Origin: an uncultured virus (IMG/VR IMGVR_UViG_3300043443_000226)
Lineage: Duplodnaviria > Heunggongvirae > Uroviricota > Caudoviricetes
DNA: 64,000 bases
IMG/VR virus record: IMGVR_UViG_3300043443_000226
Direction: 5' to 3' (one strand)
Both the position numbers and the translations under genes were made by a program. How positions within the stretch are numbered: the first letter of the stretch is position 1; each line of letters opens with the position of its first letter. Positions 3,300 to 49,693 of the stretch are shown here, piece by piece. The notes under the pieces are model-generated. The model saw nothing but the letters and a program-made list of their open reading frames with translations. It made no database searches and was not told where the DNA came from.

Positions 3300-3527
3300 A
3301 TGAGCAAATCAACTTACAACGGCTGGACTAACTACGCTACTTGGAGAATCAATCTAGAGATCTTCGATGGTCTTGATCAGGTTTGGGACGCTGACGAAGC
3401 AAGACAATATGTTGAAGATTACATCCATGCTTCATCGTCAGGTCTTGCCCGTGATTATGCGCTAGCGTTTATCTCTGATGTAAACTGGCACGAGATCGCC
3501 TCACATTATCAGGAAGAAACAGTATGA
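3300..3527 (+). CDS. Conserved phage early protein with YNGWTNYATW motif
   Basis: AGGA RBS; YNGWTNYxTW...VNWxEIA motif familiar from small phage proteins. Confidence 0.8.
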   Translation: MSKSTYNGWTNYATWRINLEIFDGLDQVWDADEARQYVEDYIHASSSGLARDYALAFISDVNWHEIASHYQEETV

Positions 3528-3706
3528 ACTTAGACATAAAGACGAAAGACGGTGATAGAGTATGCTTAAGTCAGCATGAGGATGGACTGTGGTTGTCTAT
3601 CTGGTTGTTTAGGGGACATTCTAGCGTACCTATCTCGTTGGATGATGCTACTGAGCTTAGAGATGCTTTAAACATATTCTTGGAGGATGCTGATGATTAC
3701 GAATAA
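3524..3706 (+). CDS. Hypothetical protein (60 aa)
   Basis: ATGA overlap with the upstream gene. Confidence 0.7.
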   Translation: MNLDIKTKDGDRVCLSQHEDGLWLSIWLFRGHSSVPISLDDATELRDALNIFLEDADDYE

Positions 3707-3785
3707 ATCTAATGATCTTGTGTTGTATCTTGGTGGTAGTGCTTTCGGTGTATTGTTCGCTGTACTTATCTTTTTAGGGGTTTAA
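3693..3785 (+). CDS. 30-aa single-TM micro-protein
   Basis: MITNKSNDLVLYLGGSAFGVLFAVLIFLGV; GGAGG RBS; below the ORF-track cutoff. Confidence 0.6.
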   Translation: MITNKSNDLVLYLGGSAFGVLFAVLIFLGV

Positions 3786-3786
3786 C

Positions 3787-3918
3787 ATGAAAACAAATCA
3801 ACTAACTGGTGCTGCCCTTGATTGGGCAGTGGCGAAGTGTGAGGGTCGAAGTGAGCCGGAATTGGTGAATAATTTTCCCGTTGCTTGGTATACGTGGGGA
3901 AACACGCTAAGCAATTAG
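3787..3918 (+). CDS. Short DUF2591-like N-terminal fragment (43 aa)
   Basis: MKTNQLTGAALDWAVAKCEG motif followed by an early stop. Confidence 0.55.
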   Translation: MKTNQLTGAALDWAVAKCEGRSEPELVNNFPVAWYTWGNTLSN

Positions 3919-4019
3919 AGGCTCTACAAGGCGTTGAAGATGCTCTCATGTAGGTAGACACCACCTTAGCCTAGATAATCGCTTCTAGGCCTGTTTTAAT
4001 CGATTCTGGAGGGTATTCT

Positions 4020-4193
4020 ATGACTAAAGAGATGTTGGATGAGTTACTGTACTTAGTTGAACTTCAAATCAAGGCTAACATAGCCATTGCATTAGGCCAT
4101 GCTGATGCTGCTGATAAAGAAGCAGAAAGAGAGCATGTTCAGTACTATCGACTTGTTTCGTTGATTGACTCTATGAAGGATGATCTTAAATGA
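4020..4193 (+). CDS. Hypothetical protein (57 aa)
   Basis: MTKEMLDELLYLVELQIKANI...; GGAGG RBS; ATGA overlap with the next gene. Confidence 0.65.
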   Translation: MTKEMLDELLYLVELQIKANIAIALGHADAADKEAEREHVQYYRLVSLIDSMKDDLK

Positions 4194-4387
4194 GATGCAT
4201 TAGCTGCAATGAAGCCTTAAGTGACTACGAAGCCTCTAGGCGTAGTGTTCGAACACACCAGTATATTGACTTATGCAATGATTGTTTTCGTTATGTCCGA
4301 GATGATATCGCTGCTGTTGGTAATGTACGATTAATCAATGAAGGAGATGATGACATTGTAAGTAAACGTAACAGCACTGATGATTGA
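4190..4387 (+). CDS. Small Zn-binding protein
   Basis: CxxC...CxxC (MRCISCNEAL...DLCNDCF). Confidence 0.75.
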   Translation: MRCISCNEALSDYEASRRSVRTHQYIDLCNDCFRYVRDDIAAVGNVRLINEGDDDIVSKRNSTDD

Positions 4388-4388
4388 C

Positions 4389-4417
4389 TTGACAACTTTG
4401 TTTTTCTCTGATACCCT
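4389..4417 (+). promoter_or_regulatory. Sigma70-like promoter
   Basis: TTGACA-N17-TACCCT with extended TG. Confidence 0.55.
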
Positions 4418-4420
4418 AAA

Positions 4421-4525
4421 TCTATATAGGCTATGTAGGCTACTTAGGCTATGTATTACATATATACTATGTATAATATTTACTATATACTTAGTACTTA
4501 GACTATTTAGCCTATGTACAGTAGG
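4421..4525. repeat. AT-rich degenerate 9-bp tandem repeats (candidate origin, phage A)
   Basis: ctatatagg-ctatgtagg-ctacttagg-ctatgtatt... periodicity in an intergenic gap just after a promoter. Confidence 0.6.
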
Positions 4526-4548
4526 GCTTAACATAAGGATTGTTCGAA

Positions 4549-4740
4549 ATGTACCCTGATGATGAGTTTTTACCCGAAGAAGCCTTTGACTACACTAAAG
4601 GTGAGTATGAAGATATGCACGAAGATCACAAAATCAATGATGTGTTAAATCGTTTTGTTCGTTTATGTCAAGAGTATGGGTTTTACTTTATGATGAGGCA
4701 ATTAACTAAGGCTCTGAACGCTAAAGGGTTCAACGTATGA
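4549..4740 (+). CDS. Hypothetical protein
   Basis: AAGGA RBS; overlaps the next start. Confidence 0.7.
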   Translation: MYPDDEFLPEEAFDYTKGEYEDMHEDHKINDVLNRFVRLCQEYGFYFMMRQLTKALNAKGFNV

Positions 4741-5018
4741 AAAAGCGTATACAGCCACGCAAGCGTAAGGTTAACCCCTACATAGCCTACCTAGAGAATC
4801 ATGGCCGCTATGCCACCTTAGAAGACCTCCTAGAGGCATTTCCTAACAAGACCTCTAAGCAGATAAGAGACTCTATGTCAAAGTTAGTTGATAACTACAC
4901 TGTTGATAGGGATATTAGAAAGGATGATCATCAATACTTGATATCGTACTCACTAGGTGGATACAACACCATGGACAACACTGGTATTTGTTGGCATAAC
5001 CCTTTTAATCTGAGGTAA
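4737..5018 (+). CDS. Putative winged-HTH protein ending HNPFNLR
   Basis: Basic N-terminus, helix pattern ATLEDLLEAF...SKQIRDSMSKL, then beta hairpin. Confidence 0.55.
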   Translation: MKKRIQPRKRKVNPYIAYLENHGRYATLEDLLEAFPNKTSKQIRDSMSKLVDNYTVDRDIRKDDHQYLISYSLGGYNTMDNTGICWHNPFNLR

Positions 5019-5022
5019 CACT

Positions 5023-5268
5023 ATGAGTGGTGATCACAACATGTATCAAAAAACTAAGTCATACCTTGATGACTTTGAGTGTCCAAGGTGTGGGCATTGT
5101 TGCCAAGCACTGGAGACAGAGCGTGAATGGATCGGACTGACTGATGAAGAGATTCAGGACTTGAGTTATCTATCACAAAAAATTGATGCAAGTAACTCGG
5201 AGTGGTTTGATCGTTGGGGTTTTTCAAGAGCCATTGAAGCCAAGCTGCGGGAGAAGAATCATGGATAG
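5023..5268 (+). CDS. Mosaic small protein (CPRCGHCC / WIGLTDEEI / AIEAKLREKN modules)
   Basis: GAGG RBS; modules shared with 5261..5551 and 51132..51455. Confidence 0.8.
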   Translation: MSGDHNMYQKTKSYLDDFECPRCGHCCQALETEREWIGLTDEEIQDLSYLSQKIDASNSEWFDRWGFSRAIEAKLREKNHG

Positions 5269-5551
5269 AGAAGCTATGCAGATGGCGCTAGAGGCTTTGG
5301 TGGAAATCAACAAGTTGAGTATTGGTGAAAACGCCATCTGCCTGCCAGCGGAGATCGATGGTGCAATGGACGCCCTGCGCCAAGCACTGGATACAAAGCG
5401 TGAATGGGTGGGGCTGACGGCAGATGAAATCTGGAAATGCAACAAAGCAAAGAGTGGTGCTGTGGAGTTTCACATTTGCTCTGCACATCAGAACGTGGAG
5501 GATTTTGCGGAATCTATTGAAGCCAAGTTAAAGGAGAAGAACAAGTGGTAA
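5261..5551 (+). CDS. Mosaic small protein (MDREAMQMALEAL / WVGLT / IEAKLKEKN)
   Basis: Start at MDRE overlapping the previous stop, GGAG RBS. Confidence 0.8.
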   Translation: MDREAMQMALEALVEINKLSIGENAICLPAEIDGAMDALRQALDTKREWVGLTADEIWKCNKAKSGAVEFHICSAHQNVEDFAESIEAKLKEKNKW

Positions 5552-5593
5552 ATATCGTAGTAGGACTACGACTCAAGCTAAAGGAGAAAATCA

Positions 5594-7195
5594 GTGAACT
5601 ACTTAGCCACTCATGTTGGCTGTGATGATTGTGGATCTAGTGATGCGTTGTCCGTATCTGTTAACGATAAAGGAGAAACTTGGTCACACTGTTTTGCTTG
5701 TGGTACGAATACGAAAATAGATGTTGATAACTTCAGACAAAAGCATACAAAGCCTGCTAAGGTGATTCCAATGTTAGATGGTAAGTATCAGTCCATACCG
5801 CTAAGAAACCTATCCAGAGATGCATTAAAAGCCTTTGGTGTGATGATCACTGATGAGGGTGGTGTAGCTTTCCCCTACTGTGATGCTGATGGTAAGGTCA
5901 CTGCCTACAAGGTAAGACATGATGCAATGAAGACTGATTGCACCATCAAAGGTGATTGGTCTAAGGCAGGTTTATTTGGAGCGCAGTTATTCGCTAAAGG
6001 TGGTAAGAGCATCACTATCACTGAAGGTGAGTTTGATGCTGTTGCTGTCTATCAGATGAATGGTATGCGGTATCCGGTAGTAAGCATACGCAATGGGGCA
6101 CAATCAGCACTAAAGGACTGCAAGGACAACTATGAATATCTTGACTCTTTTGAAACCATTGTTATCAGCTTTGATGCTGATGAAGTTGGTAAGCAGGCTG
6201 CTACGAAGGTAGCTGATCTATTCGGTGCTAAGGCTAAGATAGTAAAGCACAGGCAACCACACAAGGATGCTAATGACTATCTCAAAGATGAGATGATCAA
6301 GGAGTATATCCAGGATTGGTTTGCTGCTGAAGTCTATGTACCTGATGGGATCATCGAAGGATCAAAGCTTTGGGAAGAGATCAACACACCAGCCATTAAA
6401 GCCTCTTGTGACTATCCATGGGTAGGTCTTAATGCGTTAACTTATGGTATCCGTAAGGGTGAGCTGGTGACGTTTACAGCAGGATCTGGACTGGGTAAAT
6501 CACAGGTACTGAGGGAGATTGTTTACCACATCCTATGTAAGACTGAGGATAACATTGGCTTGATGTTCCTGGAGGAGTCTACTGTTCGCACTGCCAAAGG
6601 TATCATGTCTATCCATGCTAACAAGCCACTGCATCTACCTGACACAGCGTACACTGATGAGGAGTTTAGAGATGCCTTCGAGCACACTCTTGGCACTAAT
6701 AGGGTTTATCTTTTTGATCATTTTGGGAGTACATCAATTGACAACATACTATCAAGAGTCAGATTCATGGCTAAAGGACTCGGATGTAGCTTTGTTGTGT
6801 TGGATCATATTAGTATTGTCGTCAGTTCTGGCGATGTTGGCGATGAACGTAAAGCATTAGATGAGATCATGACCAAGCTTAGGATGATTGTTCAGGAGAC
6901 AGGCATAGCACTGTTGATTGTCAGTCATCTAAAGAGACCTGATGGTAAAGGCCATGAAGAAGGAGCAGCTACTTCACTAGGTCAGCTTCGAGGATCTGGT
7001 AGCATTGCACAGTTGTCTGATATGGTGATCGGTATGGAAAGGAATGCACAGCATGATGATGAACGTGAACGCAATACCACCAGGATTAGGGTACTCAAGA
7101 ACCGTTTCAGCGGTGTCACAGGTCCAGCCTGTAACGTCTATTACAACCACTCAACAGGAAGGTTATCAGAGGTCACACAAGATGAAGACTTATGA
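5594..7195 (+). CDS. T7 gp4-like primase-helicase
   Basis: N-terminal CxxC..HCFAC Zn finger, TOPRIM ITEGEFDA and DAD, Walker A AGSGLGKS, LDHISI, LRGSGSIAQLSD, KNRFSG. Confidence 0.95.
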   Translation: MNYLATHVGCDDCGSSDALSVSVNDKGETWSHCFACGTNTKIDVDNFRQKHTKPAKVIPMLDGKYQSIPLRNLSRDALKAFGVMITDEGGVAFPYCDADGKVTAYKVRHDAMKTDCTIKGDWSKAGLFGAQLFAKGGKSITITEGEFDAVAVYQMNGMRYPVVSIRNGAQSALKDCKDNYEYLDSFETIVISFDADEVGKQAATKVADLFGAKAKIVKHRQPHKDANDYLKDEMIKEYIQDWFAAEVYVPDGIIEGSKLWEEINTPAIKASCDYPWVGLNALTYGIRKGELVTFTAGSGLGKSQVLREIVYHILCKTEDNIGLMFLEESTVRTAKGIMSIHANKPLHLPDTAYTDEEFRDAFEHTLGTNRVYLFDHFGSTSIDNILSRVRFMAKGLGCSFVVLDHISIVVSSGDVGDERKALDEIMTKLRMIVQETGIALLIVSHLKRPDGKGHEEGAATSLGQLRGSGSIAQLSDMVIGMERNAQHDDERERNTTRIRVLKNRFSGVTGPACNVYYNHSTGRLSEVTQDEDL

Positions 7196-7352
7196 AGATT
7201 TGAAAGAAGATACAAAACGATTTGCTTTACAGCAGATACGTACAGGGTCTACAATGGGTGAAGTAGTTTGTTCGTTCGAAGAGATCATCAATGAGATCAG
7301 AAAGACATCAGACTACGTAGAGGCTATGCAAGATGCTAATAGGAGACCATAA
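7182..7352 (+). CDS. Hypothetical protein (56 aa)
   Basis: MKTYEDLKED...; GAGG RBS. Confidence 0.6.
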   Translation: MKTYEDLKEDTKRFALQQIRTGSTMGEVVCSFEEIINEIRKTSDYVEAMQDANRRP

Positions 7353-7525
7353 TGGCTGAAGTAACGAACATTGAAGAGCATGAGGACGGTTCCGCTACAC
7401 TACATTTTGATCTTACTGATGAAGAAATAAAGGTACTAATTCAGTGGGGTATCAAAGAAGCAATAAAGCTTGCTTACCATAAAGCACAGAACTTTGATTG
7501 GAAAGACAGTGAACCAACGAATTAA
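7352..7525 (+). CDS. Hypothetical protein (57 aa)
   Basis: MAEVTNIEEHEDGSATLHFDLTDEE...; AGGAG RBS; TAATG coupling; not in the ORF track. Confidence 0.7.
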   Translation: MAEVTNIEEHEDGSATLHFDLTDEEIKVLIQWGIKEAIKLAYHKAQNFDWKDSEPTN

Positions 7526-7703
7526 AGCACTTGCTGAACAGGCTGGATTTCAATACATCAAAGATGAAGGTATCGGCTGGGCAGGGAATCATAATGCTAG
7601 TTTGCCAAAGTTTGCCGAGTTGCTTATTCGGGAATGTGCTGAGATTTGTTTAGAAGCAAATGACCATAAAAATATTTTACGACATTTCGGAGTTGAACAA
7701 TGA
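7509..7703 (+). CDS. Small phage protein, MNxRI...KFAELxxxEC...HFGVE family
   Basis: GTG start; paralog of 8315..8536. Confidence 0.75.
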   Translation: MNQRIKALAEQAGFQYIKDEGIGWAGNHNASLPKFAELLIRECAEICLEANDHKNILRHFGVEQ

Positions 7704-7891
7704 AGCAAACACTTAGAGATATGATGAGTCAATGCTGGAACAACCGTATGGATGGTGAACGTTTTGACTTTGAGAAATTTGCTGAGATGGTAGCCTTCCA
7801 AGCCAGTGAAGAAAGGTTAGATCGCTGTATTGAAGCTTTAGAGAGAAGAGGTTATGCTGATGCAGCAGACATCATCAGGGGTGAAGGATGA
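7700..7891 (+). CDS. Small phage protein, related family
   Basis: QCWNNRMDGERFDFEKFAE resembles QCWDQRLDGRYFDQEKFAE of 8315..8536. Confidence 0.75.
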   Translation: MKQTLRDMMSQCWNNRMDGERFDFEKFAEMVAFQASEERLDRCIEALERRGYADAADIIRGEG

Positions 7892-8133
7892 ACCGAGAAG
7901 AAATAATCCGCATGGCGCGGGAGGCTGGGTTCAAAGTTGATTGGCAACACGCAGACGTTGCTGAGATTAAAGCGAAAAGGTACGAATACTTCGCCGCCCT
8001 TGTCGCCGCTGCCGAGCGTGAGGAGTGCGCGAAGGTGTGTGATAACCGCATAACCAATGAAGCTGGAATGCAGCGTGAGGATTATGAGAACCGACAATGC
8101 GCCGCAGCCATCAGAGCAAGGGGTGAGAGATGA
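7888..8133 (+). CDS. Mosaic protein MNREEIIRMAREAG...EREECAKVC...AAAIRARGE
   Basis: Homolog of 51448..51822. Confidence 0.8.
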   Translation: MNREEIIRMAREAGFKVDWQHADVAEIKAKRYEYFAALVAAAEREECAKVCDNRITNEAGMQREDYENRQCAAAIRARGER

Positions 8134-8318
8134 GGACACCCATGGTCTATTCAGCGACGGACATCAAGTGTTGGGATGTTTCTAAGCAATTGAAAAATGG
8201 CTTGTGGGCGCCAGCCAGACCAGAAAGCTGGTCTGGGATCAACATCAAAAAGCGCGTTACGGCTGCGTGGATGGTGTTTACCGGAAAGGCGGACGTGCTT
8301 GTGTGGGGTGAGCAATGA
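8130..8318 (+). CDS. Small phage protein (WAPARP...AWMVFTGKAD)
   Basis: ATGA-coupled ORF. Confidence 0.75.
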   Translation: MRTPMVYSATDIKCWDVSKQLKNGLWAPARPESWSGINIKKRVTAAWMVFTGKADVLVWGEQ

Positions 8319-8536
8319 ACAAACGAATCCGAGAATTTGCTGAGCAATGTTGGGATCAGCGATTAGATGGTCGGTATTTCGATCAGGAAAAGTTCGCCGA
8401 GTTGATTGTAAAGGAATGTGCCGAAATTTCAGAACAAAGTCAATGGAGTGAAGCCAAGGGCGAATATTATGAAGGCTTTAATGAGGCTATGATTTATGTT
8501 TCCAATAAGATTAAAGAACATTTCGGAGTTGAATAA
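8315..8536 (+). CDS. Small phage protein, MNKRIREFAEQ...IKEHFGVE
   Basis: ATGA-coupled; paralog of 7509..7703. Confidence 0.8.
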   Translation: MNKRIREFAEQCWDQRLDGRYFDQEKFAELIVKECAEISEQSQWSEAKGEYYEGFNEAMIYVSNKIKEHFGVE

Positions 8537-8560
8537 TGAACGCAGAGCAAGGAGTGAACA

Positions 8561-8740
8561 ATGTGGGTAATGGATAGGCTGTTAGCTGACCATGCAGAGC
8601 TAAAGAAGAAGTATGATACACTGCTAGAAGACTATCAGAAACTGGTACACAAATATGAAGAGCTTAGTGCTGGACATCGAAACAGACATGAAGCAGACTG
8701 TTATCTTCTGCGTAGTCACGAAGGATCTGACAACAAGTGA
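8561..8740 (+). CDS. Coiled-coil micro-protein overlapping the pol start (59 aa)
   Basis: MWVMDRLLADHAELKKKYDTLLEDYQKL...; AAGGAG RBS. Confidence 0.55.
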   Translation: MWVMDRLLADHAELKKKYDTLLEDYQKLVHKYEELSAGHRNRHEADCYLLRSHEGSDNK

Positions 8741-10295
8741 GGTGGTATGTCATACTCATCCAAGTACACTAAAGCCTCTTATAGAGGATTACGACACAGT
8801 GATAGGACACAATCTAATCAGCTTCGACGGTTACCACCTTCGGAGATTGTGGAACATTACGATACCACTCAAGAAGGCCTCCGATACGCTCGTGCTGTCG
8901 AGGCTATGGAATCCCAGTATCGAAGGAGGACACAGTCTAGAAGCATGGGGGAAAAGATTAGGGAATCACAAGATTGAGTTCCAAGACTTCACTGCTTTGA
9001 CACAAGAGATGATTGATTATTGTATTCAAGATGTCAATCTTACTGGTGAACTTCACCGCAAACTATGCGTAGAATTGAAGGACTTTTCACCGCAAAGCAT
9101 TGACCTCGAACACAAGGTACAGTTTATCGTCGCACAGCAGGAAAGACATGGATTCAAACTAGACATCCCTTTATGTACTGAGTTTATCTCTCAGTTAACT
9201 ACGAAGTTATCAACCATTGAGGAGAATCTACAGACTATATTCCCACCAATTATCACTGAACGTGTTAGTGAGAAGACAGGTAAGAAACTAAAGGATCATG
9301 TTGAAGTGTTTAATCCAGGCTCCAGAGATCAGATAGGACGTAGACTGACATCGTTAGGTTGGAAGCCTGAGAAGTTCACTGAGACAGGTAAGCCAATGGT
9401 GGATGAAGTGATCCTGTCTAAGTTACCTTATCCAGAAGCTAAAGCAATGGCTGAGTATCTACTTATCCAGAAGCGTATAGCACAGTCCTCATCGTGGCTA
9501 GAGCACGTTGCTGCTGATGGTAGAGTACACGGTAAGGTCATCACTAACGGTGCTGTCACAGGTCGTATGACGCATCACAGCCCTAACATGGCACAGGTCC
9601 CTGCTGTCAATGCTGACTACGGTGAAACATGCAGACAAGTATGGACTGTAGATCCTGGTAATGTCTTAGTTGGTTGTGATGCTTCAGGGTTAGAACTACG
9701 TATGTTAGCTCATTACATGAAAGATGATGAGTACACAAAGGAGGTTATCAATGGGGATGTCCACACTAAAAACCAGCTCGCTGCTGGTCTTGAGAGTAGG
9801 GCGCAAGCAAAAACGTTCATCTATGCGTTTCTCTATGGAGCAGGGCCGGCTAAGATTGGATCAATTGTACAAGGGAGTGCCGAAGAGGGAAAAAGACTCA
9901 TTTCCAGCTTCCTTAAGAATACGCCAGCTCTCAAAACGCTTAAAGATAAAGTTAGCAAGTATGCAGAGAAAGGGTATTTACCTGCCCTTGACGGTCGTAG
10001 ATTATGGGTACGGTCGGAACACGCAGCACTTAACACGTTACTTCAAGGGGCTGGTGCGATCTCTATGAAGCAAGGTCTGATCCACCTACACGAGTCACTG
10101 AAGAAACATAAGATACCTGCACACTTTGTTGCTAATGTCCATGATGAATGGCAGATAGAATGTCCTAAGCAGTATGCTGATGATGTTGGTAAACTCGCTG
10201 TAGCAGCTATTGAGAAGGCTGGTGTTACCTTGGGTTTACGTTGTCCTCTAACTGGTGAATATAAGGTAGGAAACAACTGGAAGGAAACACACTGA
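8655..10295 (+). CDS. T7-like family A DNA polymerase
   Basis: Exo LDIETD and GHN; motif A DASGLELR, motif B KTFIYAFLYG, motif C VHDEWQ. Confidence 0.96.
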   Translation: MKSLVLDIETDMKQTVIFCVVTKDLTTSEVVCHTHPSTLKPLIEDYDTVIGHNLISFDGYHLRRLWNITIPLKKASDTLVLSRLWNPSIEGGHSLEAWGKRLGNHKIEFQDFTALTQEMIDYCIQDVNLTGELHRKLCVELKDFSPQSIDLEHKVQFIVAQQERHGFKLDIPLCTEFISQLTTKLSTIEENLQTIFPPIITERVSEKTGKKLKDHVEVFNPGSRDQIGRRLTSLGWKPEKFTETGKPMVDEVILSKLPYPEAKAMAEYLLIQKRIAQSSSWLEHVAADGRVHGKVITNGAVTGRMTHHSPNMAQVPAVNADYGETCRQVWTVDPGNVLVGCDASGLELRMLAHYMKDDEYTKEVINGDVHTKNQLAAGLESRAQAKTFIYAFLYGAGPAKIGSIVQGSAEEGKRLISSFLKNTPALKTLKDKVSKYAEKGYLPALDGRRLWVRSEHAALNTLLQGAGAISMKQGLIHLHESLKKHKIPAHFVANVHDEWQIECPKQYADDVGKLAVAAIEKAGVTLGLRCPLTGEYKVGNNWKETH

Positions 10296-16495: not shown

Positions 16496-16936
16496 TGTCG
16501 CCTCTGCTTCACGACGAAGAACAAGACCTCTGGTTACTTTACCTGCTGCAAGATTCCAACGCTTTAGTTCTTGAACAGCTTCCTCCCATCGTTCTTGGTT
16601 TATTCTTGTTCGCATCGTGGATGATCGGAGCCTAGCTGGTCCTAAGTTGTAAGTCCAGCTAACTATGGCAGCAGCTTTGTTAGGGTGTTTCGTCAACACT
16701 GGACAGGCTTTGTAGACTTGAAGTAGGAATCTCTCTGCATCAAGTTCAAACAATGCCTGTCCTCTTTCTTTTGAGATCTCAGGATCATCTAAGGTAACCC
16801 TATCACCGTTCTCATACATCGTAGATCCCCAACCTATGGTGGGGACGTTAGCACTGCATAGATAGGGTTTACTTCTCCAGCCTTCGAATCTCTTGATCAG
16901 TGGTTCAGCAATGGCGATTACTTCTTTGATTCCCAT
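16364..16936 (-). CDS. Endolysin, GH24 lysozyme
   Basis: FEG..PYLC...PTIGWG, YNLG, GLVLRREAE. Confidence 0.92.
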   Translation of the reverse strand: MGIKEVIAIAEPLIKRFEGWRSKPYLCSANVPTIGWGSTMYENGDRVTLDDPEISKERGQALFELDAERFLLQVYKACPVLTKHPNKAAAIVSWTYNLGPARLRSSTMRTRINQERWEEAVQELKRWNLAAGKVTRGLVLRREAEATLFLLSPSNNKTEHGNVDEDKEPFQKNLRSVLVSYDKIIRVTNP

Positions 16937-17382
16937 ACCCTACCAACAAACCAAAAAGTTAGAATCAATGACAACATACCTTCATCGTAGTCAGTCCATC
17001 CTGATAACAACACTGATGTCCATGAACCATCCTGAAGAAAAGCTAGATATAGTCCAGCAGCTTTGACAACTGAATAAAAGAATACAAACCAGTACGTCAC
17101 TGCTGGTCTAACCAAAGCAGATAGCGATGCTACCCACTTCCAAGCCTTGCTGTCAGACTCTGCTTGTTGTTTGAATGCTTCACCGATAGCATCTAACTCA
17201 TGCTCTTGTAGACGTTGATGTCCCTGCTGTAAAGCAAACTCTGCCTGCATCTTAGCAATGGAGACTTCAACATCTAACTTCTTTAGTTCATGCTCTCTTT
17301 CAAACTTCCTATCTAAGATCTTTAAGACTTCAGGAGCAAGACGAAAGACACCACCGATCAGAGCACCAATGAGTTCAAACAT
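16918..17382 (-). CDS. 3TM-holin-like membrane protein
   Basis: SALVRPAVTY...ILTFWFVGR; upstream of the endolysin; homolog at 57041..57520. Confidence 0.7.
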   Translation of the reverse strand: MFELIGALIGGVFRLAPEVLKILDRKFEREHELKKLDVEVSIAKMQAEFALQQGHQRLQEHELDAIGEAFKQQAESDSKAWKWVASLSALVRPAVTYWFVFFYSVVKAAGLYLAFLQDGSWTSVLLSGWTDYDEGMLSLILTFWFVGRVWESKK

Positions 17383-19591
17383 TAGCAAATTCTCCCATGA
17401 TCTGACGAACAATACTAGGGGACATAGAACTTACATTAATACCTCTTTTCTGTAGTTCTTGTTTTATCTCATCTAGAGATGGTCCTGGCTCTACAGGTGA
17501 GGTTGTAGGTAATTGTTGTATAGATTGATCTTCTGGTGTCTCTGGTGATATTTGAGGACCAGCACGAAGAGCCATAGCACCTGTATACTTACCAACAGCT
17601 TCAATACCACGCTGAATAACTTCTGCTTTTGGTTTCTTTCTTTGAGCTTCTTTTAACGCATTGTTTATGTTAGGATCAAAGAATACTTCAGACAAAGCCT
17701 TTGGAGAAGCAACATAGTCAGCTAAACCTTTAATACTGTCTGTTAAGATCTTAACTAAGTTACCAGACTGTGCTGTACCACCTAATGCCCTAGTAGTGGC
17801 GTAAGCCTCACCACCGGACATCATAGAAGGACCACCTGCTCTTCCTTCAGACTGTAAAGCCTTTTGCATAAAAGACATTGCTTTGATAGCATCTGCCTTG
17901 TCTGCTGCTGTTGGGAACAAGAAGTTAAAGTCACCAGACTGAATACCTTTTAGGGCTGCTTGGATGTTAAAGGTAGGTGTGTTCGCAGCAGCACCTTTGA
18001 TGTCTGCTTTGTTAAGTACATCTTGAAACAAGATACCACGTACTTGATTAGCTACATCAGGTGCTTGTTGACCTAGTGTGCTGAATACAATAGCTTGTTG
18101 TGATTTAGGAAGTGTTGATAACTTCATAGCAACATCTTCAGGAACTAAGTCAGTAACTCTTTCTACATCAAAAGTCTTAGTAATAGGATAGTTAGCAAAC
18201 TCCTCAATCTTGTCTATGTTTTTAGCAAAATTGTCTCTTGCTGCTTTCAAACGATCTGCTCCAGGAACACCTTGATCAATAGCTAAATCTAAAGCATCTT
18301 TGTAGGCTCTTAAAACCTGTCTAGCAAAGTTCTTTACCTGTCCTTGAGCAACACCAGCGAACATATCACTACCACCAACATCAGCTAAGGAGCCAGCACC
18401 TTTAAAGGCTGCTTCGCCCCATGCTGATATGTTCTTCTGTAAACGATCAATATCAATATTTCTTGCTCTATCAGGAACAGCAGGAACTACTGTAGTTGTC
18501 GCTGGTTGTCCACTAGGACCAAGAACTGTTGACTGAACAGTCTGTGCTGGTTGTCCAGGCTCTACAAACTCTTCTCTAATTTTTCTAAGAGCTGCAATAA
18601 AAGAAGAGTTCTGTGGTGTCTCTGGTCCTAACTGAGATAACTGTTGATCTACCATCTGCAATACAGGCGTAGTATCAACTAAACCACCAGCGTTCTTTGC
18701 AGCAGCAAAGTCTCTTTTAGCTTGTGACTTAAGTTGTCCTGATAAAGCAGATCCAAAGTTATTAAATGACGACCATACTTGGTTAGTCAACGCAACAGGA
18801 TCAACATTCATATCCCCTGCTCTGTTAAACAAACCAGTTAAGTAGTTACGGACATCAGAGGCTTGCTGTATGTCAAATTGTCTTGGGAGTTCTCCGCTTT
18901 CTGGTGCAGCACGAACACGTTCTTCCCTAGCCAGTTGTTGGCGATTACCTGTAAACTGTCCTGGTGTAAGTCTACCTACATCAAGGACACCAGTATCAGC
19001 CGGTGTTCGCATACCTTCAGGTTTTAACAACTGACTTCTACCAGCTCTTAAACCACTAGCAATAGCGTATGGAGAAGCCTGTAAAGCAAACTGTGCAGCA
19101 GGAGAATCAGGTGCTATTGTACTTGCAGCTACGCCTGTAGCACCGGCTACAGGAGCCTCTATAGCAGCAGCGCCCATACCAGCCCTGCCTGTAATACCAG
19201 GAAGACCAGCAGCAGTCAATGCAGCAGCGGGGGCAGCAGCAGCACCAAACTCATAAGCACCACGAAAACCTGGGATAGTGTTTAAGTCTACGCCGGATAG
19301 TTCTTTTACACCTTTAACCATACCTTGTGTTGAAAAGGCAGACGGGTCTTGCTTTTTCTTAAGGTAATCGTATAGGTTACCCCAACCACCAACAATGTCT
19401 AAAACACCTTTAGCACCACCTTTAACTAGAGATTCACCAAAGTCTCTTACGTTCTGTGTGAATGTCTTTTCTTGAGCTGGTTCAAACACAGATCTTTGGT
19501 TTTTTGCATCACCACCATAAGCGTTAGGATCAATTCCACGCCTACGCATTTCAGCTTCAATGGCTTGCATTTCCTCAAGGTTCATAGCCAT
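17375..19591 (-). CDS. Internal virion / ejection protein (738 aa)
   Basis: Ala/Gly/Gln-rich helical protein; third of three large genes after the tail genes. Confidence 0.6.
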   Translation of the reverse strand: MAMNLEEMQAIEAEMRRRGIDPNAYGGDAKNQRSVFEPAQEKTFTQNVRDFGESLVKGGAKGVLDIVGGWGNLYDYLKKKQDPSAFSTQGMVKGVKELSGVDLNTIPGFRGAYEFGAAAAPAAALTAAGLPGITGRAGMGAAAIEAPVAGATGVAASTIAPDSPAAQFALQASPYAIASGLRAGRSQLLKPEGMRTPADTGVLDVGRLTPGQFTGNRQQLAREERVRAAPESGELPRQFDIQQASDVRNYLTGLFNRAGDMNVDPVALTNQVWSSFNNFGSALSGQLKSQAKRDFAAAKNAGGLVDTTPVLQMVDQQLSQLGPETPQNSSFIAALRKIREEFVEPGQPAQTVQSTVLGPSGQPATTTVVPAVPDRARNIDIDRLQKNISAWGEAAFKGAGSLADVGGSDMFAGVAQGQVKNFARQVLRAYKDALDLAIDQGVPGADRLKAARDNFAKNIDKIEEFANYPITKTFDVERVTDLVPEDVAMKLSTLPKSQQAIVFSTLGQQAPDVANQVRGILFQDVLNKADIKGAAANTPTFNIQAALKGIQSGDFNFLFPTAADKADAIKAMSFMQKALQSEGRAGGPSMMSGGEAYATTRALGGTAQSGNLVKILTDSIKGLADYVASPKALSEVFFDPNINNALKEAQRKKPKAEVIQRGIEAVGKYTGAMALRAGPQISPETPEDQSIQQLPTTSPVEPGPSLDEIKQELQKRGINVSSMSPSIVRQIMGEFANV

Positions 19592-29855: not shown

Positions 29856-30638
29856 TTATCGGACCCTACCATCGCTATAAGCTGACATGATGTCATCTTG
29901 TAATGCCATATAACGTTCAGGGTCAGTCATTTGAAGTCGAATAAGATCTGCTCGACGATAAATTTTCTTGCTCGTCTCACCAGTAGCGCCATCAACTGCT
30001 ACAGTAGCTGCTTTGAGTGTTTGATTACGTTGTTCCTGAAGTTGTTGTGCTGCTTGCTGAACAGTGTCCTGTTTAGCTTTCTTCAATGCTTTGAAGTTAG
30101 ACAACAACTCATTAGCGGAATCGAAATCAAACTGTTTGTCTGCTGCTACGTACAATCTTTGACGTACAGGTGACTCATTTACCCATGAAGCAAACTCAGG
30201 ATCAGCAATGACTTGAGTATAATCAGGGTGTGATTGAGCTAGCCTGTTTGCTGTTTGCATCCTAGCCATCTGTGTTGCAGCCTGTTGAGCCTGAACAACT
30301 GCTGGATGGGATTCAACTGCTTTATTAACTGCCTTAACAGGATCGGCAAAAAAGTCAGTATCATCTTCGATAGCTTTAGCAGGTTGATCCTGCGGTGTGA
30401 TTTGCCTTTTGATGAGTTCATCAGCTAACTTACGAACTTCTCCAACTTCTTGTGCTTGACGACCAATTAGCTTTTCAGCTTCTTGATGCATCCTTATGAT
30501 GTCATCTAACGATTTACCCTTATACTTCTCAGGGATCGTAGGTTCTTCCTGAGTTGGTGCTGCTTCAGCTTTAGCCTCTACAGCTTGAAATTCATCGTTA
30601 CCTACTTCATCATCTAGAGATTCTACAAATTCAGCCAT
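29856..30638 (-). CDS. Capsid scaffolding protein, phage A
   Basis: PEKYKGKS...HQEAEKLIGRQ; C-terminal AYSDGRVR. Confidence 0.85.
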   Translation of the reverse strand: MAEFVESLDDEVGNDEFQAVEAKAEAAPTQEEPTIPEKYKGKSLDDIIRMHQEAEKLIGRQAQEVGEVRKLADELIKRQITPQDQPAKAIEDDTDFFADPVKAVNKAVESHPAVVQAQQAATQMARMQTANRLAQSHPDYTQVIADPEFASWVNESPVRQRLYVAADKQFDFDSANELLSNFKALKKAKQDTVQQAAQQLQEQRNQTLKAATVAVDGATGETSKKIYRRADLIRLQMTDPERYMALQDDIMSAYSDGRVR

Positions 30639-30693
30639 CTGCTTCTCCTAGTCGGGTATAACCCAATTGTTAGGAATTAAAAAGAAATCTAAG

Positions 30694-30933
30694 TTATCCC
30701 TCATAATAGGACTTAGACTTTGCTACGTTTACTGCTTGTTCATGCATCGTTGCCCATCGATCAGAAGCTGTTGGAAAAGCACCAGTGATGCCTTCTAGTT
30801 TGCTTCTAGGAGATGCTAATTGTCTTTGTGCTAACAAGTCACAGTGTGGGCATTGTATTTCTTTAACATAGTGATCTGTGTATCTTTCAGTAACATGTCC
30901 GTTAGCACACTCAAAATCATTCAGTATCCTCAT
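30694..30933 (-). CDS. FmdB-like Zn-ribbon protein
   Basis: DFECANGH...CPHC. Confidence 0.75.
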   Translation of the reverse strand: MRILNDFECANGHVTERYTDHYVKEIQCPHCDLLAQRQLASPRSKLEGITGAFPTASDRWATMHEQAVNVAKSKSYYEG

Positions 30934-31162
30934 TCGTTAAATCCTCATAGGCTTTTTCCCAAACAGTATGCATCGTTAGGAGCCAATCTAAAGCTTTTAG
31001 TTGACCTTTACGTTCTTGTAGTTCTTCTCCACTAGAGATAGTGGTTATGTCCGCTACTGCGTCTCTGTACTCTTTAGCGTCTTCCAGCAGGGTTTTCCAT
31101 CCTGGGTGACTCATAAGGTCGAAACGCTCTTCATAGTACTTTAGTAACTTAGTAGTATCCAT
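30917..31162 (-). CDS. Conserved head-module protein (81 aa)
   Basis: YYEERFDLMSHPGWKTL...RKGQL. Confidence 0.8.
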   Translation of the reverse strand: MDTTKLLKYYEERFDLMSHPGWKTLLEDAKEYRDAVADITTISSGEELQERKGQLKALDWLLTMHTVWEKAYEDLTNEDTE

Positions 31163-31169
31163 TGTTGTT

Positions 31170-31199
31170 ATTTTACCACAGTAAAAATATTGTTGTAAA
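31170..31199 (-). promoter_or_regulatory. Late promoter for the head operon (probably leaderless)
   Basis: TTTACA-N18-TAAAAT with TG; ATG 7 nt after the -10 box. Confidence 0.65.
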
Positions 31200-31204
31200 G
31201 AGCC

Positions 31205-31233
31205 TTGACTACGTAAGTAAAACGTGTTACAAT
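31205..31233 (+). promoter_or_regulatory. Promoter of the endonuclease gene
   Basis: TTGACT-N17-TACAAT with extended TG. Confidence 0.7.
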
Positions 31234-31252
31234 AACCCTTTCGGGAGACTCT

Positions 31253-31831
31253 ATGAAATCAATGCACTTTGCTAAAAGTAAACTAACACCAGAGGAAAGA
31301 CTAGATCTTGTTTGTCGTTTAGTTCTTCTAGGTAAACAAACTGATGAAATCAGGGTTGATTTAGGTAATGTCAGTCGTCAACGAGTACATCAGTTATTTA
31401 ACAAGTTAGTGTCTTTAGGTAGGCTTACGTACGAACAATTACCTAGGCAGGCTACGTTACTGAAGAGACGATCTAGTTACAAACAAAAGTGGGGACATTT
31501 CCCTGAAGAATCTTATGTTCGTGCCGATGAGTTCTACCAGATCATTAGAGAGAAGTTCAGACGTAAGAAAGCATCTAACTACAAACATGATTGGGATATA
31601 GAGTTCAATGACCTAACATTTCCTACCCATTGTCCGATATTAGGTATTGAGTTAGACTACTTAGCTAATTTCCGTTCAGACAACTCTCCAAGTTTTGATA
31701 GGATTGATTCCTCTAAAGGATACGTCAAAGGAAACGTAGTTATCTTATCCTGGAGAGCTAACCGTATTAAGAATGACGGTACTGCTGAAGAACATCAAAA
31801 GATAGCAGACTTTATGCGATCTGTGATGTAG
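31253..31831 (+). CDS. HTH + His-Me-finger (HNH-like) endonuclease, free-standing
   Basis: GNVSRQRVHQL HTH; CPILG...SPSFDRIDSSKGYVKGNVVILSWRANRIKND. Confidence 0.8.
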   Translation: MKSMHFAKSKLTPEERLDLVCRLVLLGKQTDEIRVDLGNVSRQRVHQLFNKLVSLGRLTYEQLPRQATLLKRRSSYKQKWGHFPEESYVRADEFYQIIREKFRRKKASNYKHDWDIEFNDLTFPTHCPILGIELDYLANFRSDNSPSFDRIDSSKGYVKGNVVILSWRANRIKNDGTAEEHQKIADFMRSVM

Positions 31832-32120
31832 TAAACATAGTTACCTGATCTGTAGTCAGTATTGTAGGTAGATCTATAGGCTCTATAGTCTCTACATTAC
31901 CCCAAACACTCTCTACCCAAGACCTGTCTGCATGGTTCCAGTTCCACTGCCATCCTACCCTGTCTGCTGGCTTAGGGTCACGTATCAGCCATTCCCAGTT
32001 TAGCCATACCAGTTCTTTACCATCAGGGATGTCTGTCGGAGGCGAAGGAGCCGGTTGCCAGCCTTCAGTACCATCAGTTTCAGTGCTTGGGATAGACCCG
32101 TTCTTTGTCCAGTATTGCAT
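31812..32120 (-). CDS. Trp/Pro-rich small protein (102 aa)
   Basis: AGGA RBS; follows the lectin gene; overlaps the endonuclease 3' end by 20 bp. Confidence 0.7.
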   Translation of the reverse strand: MQYWTKNGSIPSTETDGTEGWQPAPSPPTDIPDGKELVWLNWEWLIRDPKPADRVGWQWNWNHADRSWVESVWGNVETIEPIDLPTILTTDQVTMFTTSQIA

Positions 32121-32129
32121 GGTCTAGTC

Positions 32130-34115
32130 CTATAGGGTTGGGAAGGCTGCTGTTGGCGCAGTGAAGTTAGCTGTGTAGCGAGCGTAGTTAGTCACCCTAA
32201 CATCCTGCATATACGCATTAGCAGCACTTCCACCTGTTCTATCTGCACCAACGTACATTGAATTGGTTTGATTAAAGTCTGTGCTTACCGTACCTGTCCC
32301 GTCATTGGTTCCGTTGATGTAAATCTTCGTCTGATTGGTGCTTGTACCTTCCCTCACCACAGCAATATGCGTCCACGTTGTTGCGGACACCGTACCTGTA
32401 GATGTAATCGTAGAAGAACCGTAAGTAAATACAACCTGATTACTACTGTTTAGCGATAAAAGCCATCCCGTTGTTCCTGTACCTTTGCCGATAAGGCCAT
32501 AGGTTCCTGATGAGTTTCTGTATACCCACCCTTCAACCGTAAAGTTTCCTGTACCTATACGCTGTATTGGTTGATCTGGAATAAGCAGCCAATCCCCCGT
32601 CCCATCAAAGTACATAGAGCTACCACCCCACTTGCTCTGCGCCGTACTTATCTGAGCATTGCCCACCGTCTCCAAGTCATTCTTAGACGTAGCGTCATAG
32701 ATACCGGCGTTGGTGAAGTTGAGGAGGAGGCTAGTGTTGGTTGTGTTTGTGGGTGGTGCTGTTGGAATTGTGATTGAAGTTGACGCAGGGTCATAAACAG
32801 CTGTGCCTTTAACCATCTTAAATCCGCTGACGTAGCCGTTCCAATCCGAATCACCAGATAAATTACTTCGGCCAAGATTAAATACTTCGGACGTGCCGCC
32901 ATCCACAGCCGATGAGTTGCTAGCGATATACGCTTCTCTTGTGCCATTGACCCACAACGCCCATGCGTTACCAGATCGGGCAATGGCAACGTGCATCCAT
33001 TGGTTGTTGTTGAACGTGCTAGTTGATACCAGCATATCGCCGCCGTAATTATTTGTTGCCAACACAAACTTGTTTACGTTTGCCGGTACAGACGTTGCCA
33101 TGATCCAACGATTTGCCGCCCATGATCCTCCTGTTCCATTTCCGGCTAATCGCGTTCCCGTTCCATTTGCACCGGAATACAACCACATCTCAATCGTAAA
33201 GTTCCCAGAGCCAAGCGCAAATGCAGCGTTACTAGCAGTAGCAAGGTAATCCCCATTCCCATCAAAATACCCACTCCCACCATAAGTCGCAGCACTCCAG
33301 CTTGCAGTGGGGTTGAATGGGGAGAAGGCGACTACGGAAGGCGTTCCAGTTATCGTTAAAGCAAGTCCGTTGACGCCTTGATCTAAAAACCTATTTGTGT
33401 TCCCAAGTAAAAATACTGTGTTCGCGTCTTGGGTATATGCGCTTGTCGGCGTAGAAGAAATTGTTCTTGCTACATTTGAAACGCGCAAATTAGATATATA
33501 ACCATCAGCCCAACTAGTCCCTGATGTTGCGTTTCTTCCTGCTATTAGTTGAAAAGCAGAATAATTTGTTGAGCTTGCTGTTGTGCTTCCTACCGCAGAT
33601 CCATTCAAATAAAATGTCAAAGACCCGCCGCTTCTTACCAATGCGATATAAAGCCAAGTGTTTTTGCTTATAGTTGTTGTTCTGGTTATTCCTGATGTCC
33701 CATCGTAAAAACCAATGGTTGTGGCATTTACGTACAAATTGAAATTGTTACTAGACGAACCTGTTATTTGAAATTCCGAAGATGATCCTGACCAATAAAT
33801 CTGAGCTTCAATAGTGTAGTTGCCTGTACCAAAAGCAAAACCAGAGGAGCTTGCAGAAGTAATTGCATCCGTTCCTGTCTTAAAATAATTCCCCCACCCA
33901 GTCTGTGAGAACGGGCTAAACGTACCCTGTGTCGTGTTTCCGTTGCGGGTGATGGTGAAGTTATTGGTAGAACCGTCTAAGAACGTATTGTTCTGTGCGC
34001 CATTCGTACCGTTGCCAGGAAGCAGTAGCGTGGTGTATTCAAAGTAGTCGTCGGTGACCACTGCGGCGCCACCAGAGAACGCCGCTGCAATTGCCGCTGT
34101 AAGTGCGCCAGCCAT
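32130..34115 (-). CDS. Virion protein with three LamG/ConA-like lectin domains
   Basis: Three repeats of G..(N/Y)(F/Y)TIE.W...W.H.A..R......Y.NG...GY....R. Confidence 0.85.
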   Translation of the reverse strand: MAGALTAAIAAAFSGGAAVVTDDYFEYTTLLLPGNGTNGAQNNTFLDGSTNNFTITRNGNTTQGTFSPFSQTGWGNYFKTGTDAITSASSSGFAFGTGNYTIEAQIYWSGSSSEFQITGSSSNNFNLYVNATTIGFYDGTSGITRTTTISKNTWLYIALVRSGGSLTFYLNGSAVGSTTASSTNYSAFQLIAGRNATSGTSWADGYISNLRVSNVARTISSTPTSAYTQDANTVFLLGNTNRFLDQGVNGLALTITGTPSVVAFSPFNPTASWSAATYGGSGYFDGNGDYLATASNAAFALGSGNFTIEMWLYSGANGTGTRLAGNGTGGSWAANRWIMATSVPANVNKFVLATNNYGGDMLVSTSTFNNNQWMHVAIARSGNAWALWVNGTREAYIASNSSAVDGGTSEVFNLGRSNLSGDSDWNGYVSGFKMVKGTAVYDPASTSITIPTAPPTNTTNTSLLLNFTNAGIYDATSKNDLETVGNAQISTAQSKWGGSSMYFDGTGDWLLIPDQPIQRIGTGNFTVEGWVYRNSSGTYGLIGKGTGTTGWLLSLNSSNQVVFTYGSSTITSTGTVSATTWTHIAVVREGTSTNQTKIYINGTNDGTGTVSTDFNQTNSMYVGADRTGGSAANAYMQDVRVTNYARYTANFTAPTAAFPTL

Positions 34116-49618: not shown

Positions 49619-49630
49619 CCCGCTAGCAAT

Positions 49631-49668
49631 GCCCTTAGAAGCCCTTAAACGGGCTTTTACGGGCTTTT
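49631..49668 (+). terminator. Hairpin (terminator or RNase III site) in the early operon
   Basis: GCCCTTAGAAGCCC-TTAAAC-GGGCTTTTACGGGC then TTTT. Confidence 0.6.
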
Positions 49669-49693
49669 CTCTACCTAATTGGAGTCAACCTAC

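Follow-up and report, generated by a model that had tools for sequence, protein, structure and literature searches.

It has long been proposed that phage genes are shuffled at short stretches of conserved sequence, and to our knowledge well-documented examples of such shuffling inside a gene are few and mainly concern tail-fibre adhesins. Outside phages, antigenic-variation systems such as pilE/pilS of Neisseria alternate variable minicassettes with short conserved stretches that guide recombination, using one expression locus and silent donor copies within one genome. Here we describe a shuffling design in tiny early genes of an unannotated protein family. The genes were found in a 64,000-nucleotide (nt) stretch of DNA from an uncultured member of the Caudoviricetes (IMG/VR record IMGVR_UViG_3300043443_000226), the whole of which is called the window below. 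The window holds two phage genomes, A and B; the genes in question are gA and gB of phage A and gC of phage B, in which conserved linkers alternate with variable cassettes. They share with pilE/pilS the variable minicassettes between short conserved stretches, whereas here the copies all look expressed, their starts being coupled, and many phage genomes together hold the donor pool.

Other described systems are phage-borne. In the part of Trojet et al. (2011, PMC3157838) drawn on here, the gp38 adhesins of T-even phages are receptor binders whose hypervariable segments are split by conserved glycine-rich motifs. The PeSL elements of the hyperplastic regions of T4-type phages are described, in the sections used of Arbiol et al. 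(2010, PMC2839356), as sigma-70 promoters plus stem-loop terminators lying between genes. For temperate phages, the corresponding part of De Paepe et al. (2014, PMC3945230) reports that phage recombinases exchange short, diverged homologies, with a minimum of about 30 bp for Red-beta, that recent mosaic tracts are flanked by homology of lower identity and that exchange involves small pieces of genes more frequently than entire modules. The genes in the window resemble gp38, as far as that source goes, in encoding a small protein whose conserved motifs are structural core and exchange points at once and whose hypervariable segments are loops. They have no sequence relation to it (no Pfam match), and their linkers, EQEPVAW, PLYTAPPKREWVGLTDEE and AIEAKLKEKN, are not glycine-rich. 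They lie upstream of a primase gene in an early/replication region, whereas gp38 lies in a tail-fibre locus according to the same source, and they stand in tandem arrays in which one linker is the ribosome-binding site of the next gene.

gA, gB and gC are members of one very large family of small phage proteins of the early/replication region, built as a scaffold with loops, and we consider it probable that the DNA encoding the core doubles as short homology for recombination. The 25–55 nt of linker DNA are the only homology common to genes with different cassettes. Homologous (homeologous) recombination within the linkers would swap cassettes, delete or add whole genes in tandem arrays and carry cassettes between co-occurring freshwater phage backbones, giving rise to many combinations.

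The common plan of the proteins is an N-module, EQEPVAW, a variable cassette, PLYTAPPKREWVGLTDEE, a second variable cassette and AIEAKLKEKN. N-modules are of several unrelated types (CPRCGHCC, MSREAMKQALEALE.., MSTLPKALRLADALD.. and MSDSYDDYE..). In full, linker L1 reads (ALRQAL)ETEQEPVAW, linker L2 reads PLYTAPP(K/Q)REW(V/Q)GLTDEEI and the tail reads (F)ARAIEAKLKEKN followed by 0–3 residues. The middle unit is variable in number, being absent in gA and gB and repeated in others. The three genes are composed as follows, on the basis of open reading frames (ORFs) together with shared blocks (gA) or alignments (gC).

5023–5268, plus strand: gA, 81 amino acids; start linker MSGDHNM (5023–5043), CPRCGHCC block (5071–5103), fused L1/L2 linker QALETEREWIGLTDEEI (5104–5154), C cassette (5155–5220), tail linker FSRAIEAKLREKNHG with stop codon (5221–5268)
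5261–5551, plus strand: gB, 96 amino acids, start overlapping the gA stop (ATGGATAG); start/N linker MDREAMQMALEAL (5261–5299), N cassette (5300–5368), linker DALRQALDTKREWVGLTADEI (5369–5431), C cassette (5432–5503), tail FAESIEAKLKEKNKW with stop codon (5504–5551)
51132–51455, plus strand: gC, 107 amino acids; CPRCGHCC block (51141–51173), L1 TEQEPVAW (51183–51206), M1 cassette (51207–51299), L2 PLYTAPPQREWVGLTDEEI (51300–51356), C1 cassette (51357–51407), tail FARAIEAKLKEKNHG with stop codon (51408–51455)

Cassettes of this family occur in many combinations. Among 217 unique proteins we counted 110 N-terminal (N), 27 middle (M) and 78 C-terminal (C) clusters in 163 N-M-C combinations, with 87 N-C, 16 M-C and 4 N-M four-gamete quartets. 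Near-identical cassettes were found beside unrelated ones; the N-module of gA is found with other cassettes in P0045, L011 and P0142. We also determined where similarity ends, counting high-scoring segment pairs (HSPs) between family genes of at least 75 nt and at least 88% identity. Linker windows contain 80.3% of the 417 unique internal HSP ends, compared with 43.2% under a positional null (standard deviation 2.4, maximum 50.6%, 1000 draws). Breakpoints are therefore not random with respect to the blocks, which was the check that the first-pass annotation of this DNA had named for its idea of modular mini-genes.

Individual loci illustrate the exchange. Contig L011 is of phage-A type, with flanks 92–95% identical to the window, and its family gene is gA-like over nt 1–84 (80/84), gC-like over L2 and C1 (60/66 positions agree with gC, 44/66 with gA) and again gA-like over the tail and the next start (46/46). 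As judged from this alignment it is a phage-A gene with the cassette of phage B, the swap being bounded by L2 and the tail. The same slot of phage A (slot A1) is flanked by 91–98% identical sequence in L011, L073, L079 and L050, which carry different cassette genes between 5018 and 5574. At a second slot of phage A (A2, 7509–8560), L050 matches the window over 5574–7509, 7698–7881 and 8560–8943 without the rest, and at the slot of phage B (slot B, 51135–51820) the contents differ among the phage-B-type contigs L013, L018, L021, L022 and L052. L013 combines a phage-B-type backbone (98% over 50000–50126) with DNA that is 99% identical over 107 nt to gE, a gene of phage A. The view of the first-pass annotation that the blocks are junctions joining variable pieces in differing combinations, drawn from a pool common to different phage backbones, is borne out by the 163 combinations, the L011 swap and the slot contents.

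Alternative junctions were also seen in contigs of four runs from four studies, which show 12 joints within 5000–5600 with 24 of 24 ends at linker places; loose ends fall at the same places. In some contigs of runs X3 and X9 position 5014/5015 is joined to 5267, so that gA is absent; others join 5224 to 5531 or 5418–5431 to 5514–5519, and joints from 5380–5431 to 5514–5522 replace the C cassette of gB. Since these contigs were matched at a likeness of at least 88%, the joints show alternative neighbours, not events. A 605-nt contig of another study runs across the gA-gB arrangement of the window itself with 7 differences, and gB is 94% identical to L002 at the nucleotide level over 5220–5573.

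In its boundaries the L011 swap, like the share of HSP ends in linkers, resembles relaxed recombination as presented in the part of De Paepe et al. considered (PMC3945230), and the mechanism would fit relaxed homologous recombination. In that source the flanking homologies are incidental and vary between cases, whereas here thousands of genes use one set of three or four linkers, which are synonymously conserved.

This conservation at the DNA level was determined for 101 unique L2 linkers, in which the codons GGG (87/101), CTG (93/101), ACG (77/99), GAT (70/71), TAC (47/48) and CCA (49/59) predominate. Taking one gene per contig from 47 distant contigs gave GGG in 44 and CTG in 45 of the 47. 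GGG accounts for 20% of the glycine codons in the family's own cassettes, as opposed to 85/99 in L2. Codons of L1 are biased likewise (GTG 27/29, GCG 26/27), as are the linkers of a second modular family, family 2. At the 3' edge of L2 the equally conserved residues E+7 and I+8 use codons at background frequency. The proportion of synonymous differences (pS) rises from 0.375 in the L2 core to 0.939 at the L2 edge, and cassette C6 of these genes has 0.746. Synonymous sites in the blocks are not saturated; saturation was the other outcome that the first-pass annotation had named as speaking against its idea. An RNA element as the reason for this conservation is not supported, since the window has no Rfam family and the linkers have fold z scores between -0.13 and +1.0. 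The preferred codons of L2 (CTG ACG GAT GAG) create TGA stops in both alternative frames, for example at 51318–51345, and an ATG out of frame arises from its GAA TGG. Within the L1 consensus GAGCCGGTGGCGTGG lies GCCGGTGG, which is one base off the E. coli Chi sequence.

The tail linker acts as a translational coupling signal. Its sequence AAGGAGAAGAAY-nn-ATG comprises a Shine-Dalgarno (SD) sequence, a spacer and the overlapping start of the next gene: in 81 of 93 short-tail genes the start of the next ORF overlaps the stop, 5–8 nt after AAGGAG. The residues following KEKN result from this start/stop overlap, namely HG and stop with ATGGATAG (MDRE..), T and stop with ATGA, and Q and stop with the GTGA of the primase gene. 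Tail codons are nearly fixed (AAG 75/78, GAG 79/93, AAG 79/95), which is due, like the last of the four repeated blocks described below, to the tail being the coupling signal; the leucine codon in the middle of the tail is free (CTA 35, CTG 27, TTG 13, TTA 11; n=97). Family 2 ends in ..AIRARG.., coded GCA AGG (29/30 and 28/30), again a ribosome-binding site. The tail linker may thus serve as a plug: because it carries SD, spacer and start, any family gene could be placed before any neighbour with translational coupling kept.

In some distant members (P0137, P0164) a variant ..FxRA(I/V)E(R/A)AHGI.. stands in place of AIEAKLKEKN, so that proteins lacking the SD-encoding tail may belong to the family as well. 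In L008, L020, L023, P0127 and P0132 the sequence runs past KEKN with GGEYRN(G/K)ATTERTKL(S/N)QENT, which ends in a second KxxxQENT-like tail; the appearance is that of a tail junction that has lost its stop. Downstream of gB the tail is present twice, immediately before the primase gene:

5552–5596, plus strand: spacer and relic second tail linker (AAGCTAAAGGAGAAAATCAGTG, 5574–5596), which gives the primase its ribosome-binding site and GTG start
5594–7195, plus strand: primase/helicase gene (phrog_239, E 4e-175), the right flank of slot A1

A family gene of L011 and of L073 ends in ...AAGGAGAAGAATCAGTGA and runs straight onto the primase GTG. Compared with them the window has about 50 extra nt before the primase gene and both copies of the tail (5524–5543 against 5574–5593, 85% of 20 nt); from 5574 on it is 92–95% identical to L011, L050, L073 and L079.

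The tail invites comparison with PeSL elements: in the part of Arbiol et al. used here (PMC2839356), recombination between short conserved regulatory border sequences brings about the gain, loss and replacement of small, non-essential early ORFs. Here the border element is the SD-spacer-start tail (81/93 genes), joints and HSP ends fall at tails, and one tail is duplicated (5524–5543/5574–5593). Most junctions in our family differ in lying inside coding sequence and in frame. A search for PeSL-type elements yielded 8 promoter-like sites over 3500–9000 where 12.1 were expected, and none of the 8 terminator-like sites fell in 5000–5600. Over the whole of 3500–9000 these 8 terminator-like hairpins compare with 2.8 expected from shuffles, and three of them, on the plus strand at 3580–3990, lie upstream of the small-gene array. 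By the defining features of those systems the family does not belong with gp38 or PeSL, nor, on the features recognized so far, with relaxed recombination. What stands out is the synonymous constraint on the linkers, the use of one linker as a universal coupling plug, and natural freshwater populations with alternative junctions at the linkers. This makes a testable system for how phages diversify accessory proteins and whether recombination substrates themselves come under selection.

We next consider the extent of the family. The proteins gA to gF gave no Pfam match below E 0.01, none reaching a gathering cut-off, and no PHROG (v4) match at E≤0.01, the best at a looser threshold being phrog_60 (E 0.024, with gC); gA to gE, the five submitted to NCBIfam 20, had no match there. 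gC is matched at E≤1e-3 by 4501 of 8000 scored candidates, and none of the 120 matches listed carries a Pfam domain. A family profile retrieved 21,764 cluster representatives (50% identity) at E≤1e-3 and 4,894 at E≤1e-10, and in the 149 new and diverse representatives that were inspected (50% identity) the motifs are kept. Among 50,697 GenBank phage records the family occurs in three, all uncultured and with the site unannotated; 185,579 species genomes contain 37 family loci, nearly all in metagenome bins and mostly of freshwater Betaproteobacteria. The bins point to hosts among freshwater Burkholderiales, namely Limnohabitans, Polynucleobacter, Rhodoferax and Polaromonas. A literature search, which did not cover subscription journals, found no description of the family, its motifs or its cassette design. 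A family of at least 21,764 clusters at 50% identity thus has no Pfam, PHROG or NCBIfam match and is almost absent from GenBank phages. Annotation tools that assume whole-gene homology will split or mis-cluster these genes.

Structure prediction for P0157, a typical member, from a 42-sequence alignment, gave a predicted local distance difference test score (pLDDT) of 81.4 and a predicted template modelling score (pTM) of 0.44. The model contains helices at 3–17, 26–37, 85–92 and 102–118 and strands at 45–48 (PVAW) and 68–71 (PLYT), and places the linkers in helices and strands and the cassettes in loops. The predicted core has three elements: ..ALEALE.. and ..ALRQALETEQ pair as a helical hairpin, EPVAW and PLYTAPP pair as a two-strand hairpin, and REWVGLTDEEI and FARAIEAKLKEKN make up a helix-loop-helix at the C terminus; in this model the three loops between the core elements are the discrete, unalignable cassettes. 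The gC model is confident in the C-terminal helices 72–80 and 90–105 only, and Foldseek found nothing for it in the PDB at E≤0.001. A wide VIA-align search with the P0157 model returned generic helical hairpins only (best Z 4.4). Matches in BFVD were uncharacterised proteins of uncultured phages with 20–50% sequence identity, and those in the ESM Atlas were unnamed viral clusters at 0.86–0.87. The ratio pN/pS is 0.17–0.22 for the cassettes M1, C1 and C6, so that cassettes evolve as proteins and belong to real genes. As to function, our guess is a variable-loop binder of host or defence targets, which the early position and the hypervariability of the loops suggest; the host-interaction role given by the first-pass annotation is likewise a guess.

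The starting point of the analysis were four blocks that the first-pass annotation had quoted as near-identical and recurring in different combinations between the two phages. All four are present, the fourth with a spacing of 10 nt instead of 3, so that it has 0 matches as originally written; its halves lie at 5228/51415 and 5257/51444, each one base off the quoted places. Block 1 is ATGAGTGGTGATCACAACATG at 5023 and GTGAGTGGCAACCACAACATG at 51819, block 2 the pattern GACTTTGAGTGTCCA.G.TGTGGGCATTG at 5071 and 51141, and block 3 the pattern GCCAAGCACTGGA.ACA.AGCGTGAATGG at 5102 and 5379. By blastn with word size 7, 5220–5273 and 51407–51460 are 87.0% identical over 54 nt (E 3.6e-14), 5071–5102 and 51141–51172 90.6% over 32 nt (E 1.5e-7), and 5102–5153 and 5379–5430 80.8% over 52 nt (E 1.3e-10). 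Three of the four blocks are thus individually significant (E 1e-7 to 4e-14); the remaining one, 5024–5043 against 51820–51839 (85% over 20 nt, E 0.073), is not significant alone, and its MSGDHN start recurs in further loci. With identities of 81–91% over 20–54 nt, near-identical was an overstatement. All blocks lie in frame inside five small genes with overlapping stops and starts, gA, gB, gC, gD and gF. Where the same residue is encoded by a degenerate codon, the codon is identical in 8 of 11 cases for block 2, 7 of 11 for block 3 and 11 of 15 for block 4, and within the window the identity of the blocks is largely at the protein level. The genes following block 4, gB and gD, are unrelated as had been stated, except for a common MDRE start. 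Further blocks are shared by 7888–8133 and 51448–51822 (92% over 37, 93% over 30, 90% over 29 and 75% over 44 nt), and the ORFs at 7470–7703, 7700–7891 and 8315–8536 have blocks in common with one another. The proposed microhomology is not the right term for these stretches: at 25–55 nt and homeologous, they make this a short-homology exchange. Nor are they neutral DNA modules, since what they encode are the core helices and strands of a single protein family, the last being a ribosome-binding site with the next start.

We infer recombination at the linkers as the mechanism, carried out by phage exonuclease/annealing functions or by those of the host. Phage B had been credited with an exonuclease-annealase pair, for which two ORFs come into question:

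52830–53720, plus strand: phage B exonuclease (YqaJ / lambda-exonuclease / RecE-like; phrog_434, E 1.7e-42)
53717–54565, plus strand: 282-amino-acid ORF where an annealase is expected, by position only

The exonuclease was recognized (also PF09588, E 2.6e-8; TIGR03033, E 5e-9, below its cut-off). The annealase is a candidate by position: comparison of the 282-amino-acid ORF with Pfam, PHROG (best E 0.1), NCBIfam and PDB sequences gave no match.

Several results weigh against shuffling at linkers that serve as homology. Among the 99 locus-derived genes alone the quartets number 3 (N-C), 6 (M-C) and 1 (N-M), and M1 and C1 are over-represented because resemblance to gC was the criterion by which 120 database proteins were chosen. 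The linkers being the conserved parts, some clustering of HSP ends is inherent. Binomial P values of the linker codon bias ignore relatedness, and protein-level and translational selection explain part of the linker conservation without a role for recombination. Cassette C2 has a pN/pS of 0.74, probably an indel artefact of the ungapped comparison. The 33-nt L2 core has a mean pairwise identity of just 74% across all loci, so that efficient exchange would be confined to subgroups. Linkers of the same contig are no more alike than those of different contigs (0.758 against 0.738, permutation P 0.10; for the tail 0.709 against 0.706, P 0.42) and give no sign of local gene conversion; taken together with the 74% identity this makes the linker constraint family-wide. 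In REWVGLTDEE only 2 of 9 degenerate codons are identical between gA and gC, and 5023–5596 contains no long near-identical tract linking phage A to phage B, the longest match being 54 nt at 87%. The gA/gC gene was therefore not recently exchanged between these two genomes; recent exchange partners sit in the other contigs L011 and L013. ORF scans of phage A recognized a 5'-3' exonuclease and RusA and no annealase, and no recombinase is tied to cassette exchange. Local gene conversion between tandem paralogues had been considered as a candidate process and is not supported by the comparison of same-contig linkers.

Tentatively, the linkers may be kept alike at the DNA level as recombination handles, so that the cassettes of freshwater phage populations would form a shared, self-renewing combinatorial library on a three-loop binder scaffold with a universal SD-spacer-ATG plug, borne by one of the largest phage protein families without annotation. 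If true, this would allow rapid retargeting of host-takeover or counter-defence proteins and be a population-level analogue of an immune repertoire. Conversely, exchange could be real and the linkers conserved just for the fold and the ribosome-binding site, with recombination a by-product and the codon bias a translational or mutational constraint. This fits the coincidence of linkers with helices and strands in the model, the SD and start in the tail, the lack of excess similarity among same-contig linkers and the free leucine codon beside fixed AAG GAG AAG, which looks like base-specific selection and not like homogenised tracts. We nevertheless think it unlikely, as L1 and L2 contain no ribosome-binding site yet have near-fixed minority codons (GGG, 20% in cassettes vs 85/99), and no nucleic-acid function is apparent in them from fold z scores or Rfam. 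That the blocks are merely the conserved motifs of an ordinary family, with variable parts that diverged in place by mutation and indels, is very improbable in view of the 87 N-C quartets, the double crossover in L011, near-identical cassettes beside unrelated ones, slot replacement inside 91–98% identical backbones and the clustering of HSP ends at linkers, although the in-window synonymous identity of REWVGLTDEE is at chance (2/9) and motifs are conserved across the 149 diverse representatives.

Two further explanations concern the origin of the junctions, and we give hardly any credence to the first, that assemblers joined different phages at repeated linkers. The data are all metagenomic, the window itself abuts two genomes near 31.85 kb and the linkers are about as long as assembly k-mers. 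Exact identity between linkers is mostly below 30 nt, however, combinations recur in independent assemblies (P0058 on 41 contigs, P0061 on 16), the gA-gB arrangement is spanned by the 605-nt contig of another study, and syntenic loci keep frames and coupled starts. A dedicated diversifier acting on the linkers, such as a site-specific recombinase, a homing nuclease or a diversity-generating retroelement, seems just as far-fetched. Among the 53 larger ORFs of the window that were scanned for families there is no reverse transcriptase, integrase or invertase. Variants are discrete cassettes replaced as a whole and not point-mutated copies, which sets them apart from a diversity-generating retroelement, and the linkers differ from integron or shufflon sites in being direct, in-frame repeats without inverted-repeat structure (fold z -0.13 to +1.0). 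In favour of such a diversifier, linker DNA is conserved beyond protein need, and an HNH endonuclease gene lies at 31253–31831. We retain the scaffold-and-loop family with linkers as short homology as the probable explanation.

The remaining features of the three slots are as follows.

4737–5018, plus strand: conserved 93-amino-acid gene, left flank of slot A1, 91–92% nt identity to L011, L073 and L079
7509–8536, plus strand: variable slot A2, the second of phage A, located after the primase gene and before that of DNA polymerase, recognized by shared blocks; family-3 genes at 7509–7703, 7700–7891 and 8315–8536 (KFAEL..ECAEI, HFGVE), family-2 gene gE at 7888–8133 and a further ORF at 8130–8318
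50899–51135, plus strand: conserved 78-amino-acid gene, left flank of slot B, by nt identity
51448–51822, plus strand: gD, 124 amino acids, family 2, start overlapping the gC stop; motifs MDREDIIKLAREAG .. FAALVAAAER .. EREACAKVC .. AAIRARGEQ
51819–52067, plus strand: gF, 82 amino acids, right flank of slot B, GTG start overlapping the gD stop

At the left edge of slot A1 similarity to L011, L073 and L079 stops at about 5015–5018, and contig joints and loose ends begin at 5014/5015. At slot B, 50998–51135 is 83–89% identical in L013, L018, L021, L022 and L052, and contents differ beyond; gF has the xSG(D/N)HNM start linker in common with gA and is 85–88% identical in L018, L022 and L052. Family 2 has the same linker/cassette layout, with 44 ORFs carrying at least one of three motifs in 80 loci plus the window, a few of them out of frame or by chance. 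A single ORF at L006:2799–3203 combines a gE-type N-part and a gD-type middle with a gB-type C-part (REWVGLT..AIEAKLKEKNKW), so that cassettes pass from one of these families to the other. Family 3, again of small modular genes, has an MN(Q/K)RI..AEQ start, a KFAEL(I/L)..ECAEI core and an HFGVE tail, and is present in the window as three paralogues with pairwise shared blocks; the GTG start at 7509 is predicted from alignment with the ATG at 8315.

The two phage genomes are of like layout and abut near 31.85 kb without a spacer. GC content is 0.40–0.47 per 2-kb window (mostly 0.41–0.44) in phage A (about 1–31.8 kb) and 0.46–0.52 in phage B (about 32–64 kb); over 30600–32200 it steps from about 0.41 to about 0.48 at the join, and gene order is the same in both halves. 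Both halves look circularly permuted, with terminase genes at 436–1707 and 45871–47631. Phage A encodes terminase, a T7-type primase/helicase, DNA polymerase (8655–10295) and ribonucleotide reductase, with lysis and structural genes on the minus strand. Phage B encodes a major head protein, portal and terminase, followed by a plus-strand early region that includes a PAPS-reductase-like gene and the YqaJ/RecE-like exonuclease gene. The two are only distantly related, their endolysins being 34% identical. Megablast of 4000–9000 and 49500–54000 against the 50,697 GenBank phage records gave no match; the closest relative of the phage A primase is that of Pelagibacter phage HTVC115P (54% identical). 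The phage A region was found in metagenomes of freshwater, drinking water and estuaries (24 runs, 20 studies). In both phages the minus-strand gene next upstream of the endolysin gene encodes a phrog_6637 protein (16918–17412 and 57041–57520). Just upstream of slot B, phage B encodes the PAPS-reductase-like protein (phrog_424, E 1e-43) at 50121–50936 and a GP88-family protein (PF17338, E 1e-29) at 48666–49343.

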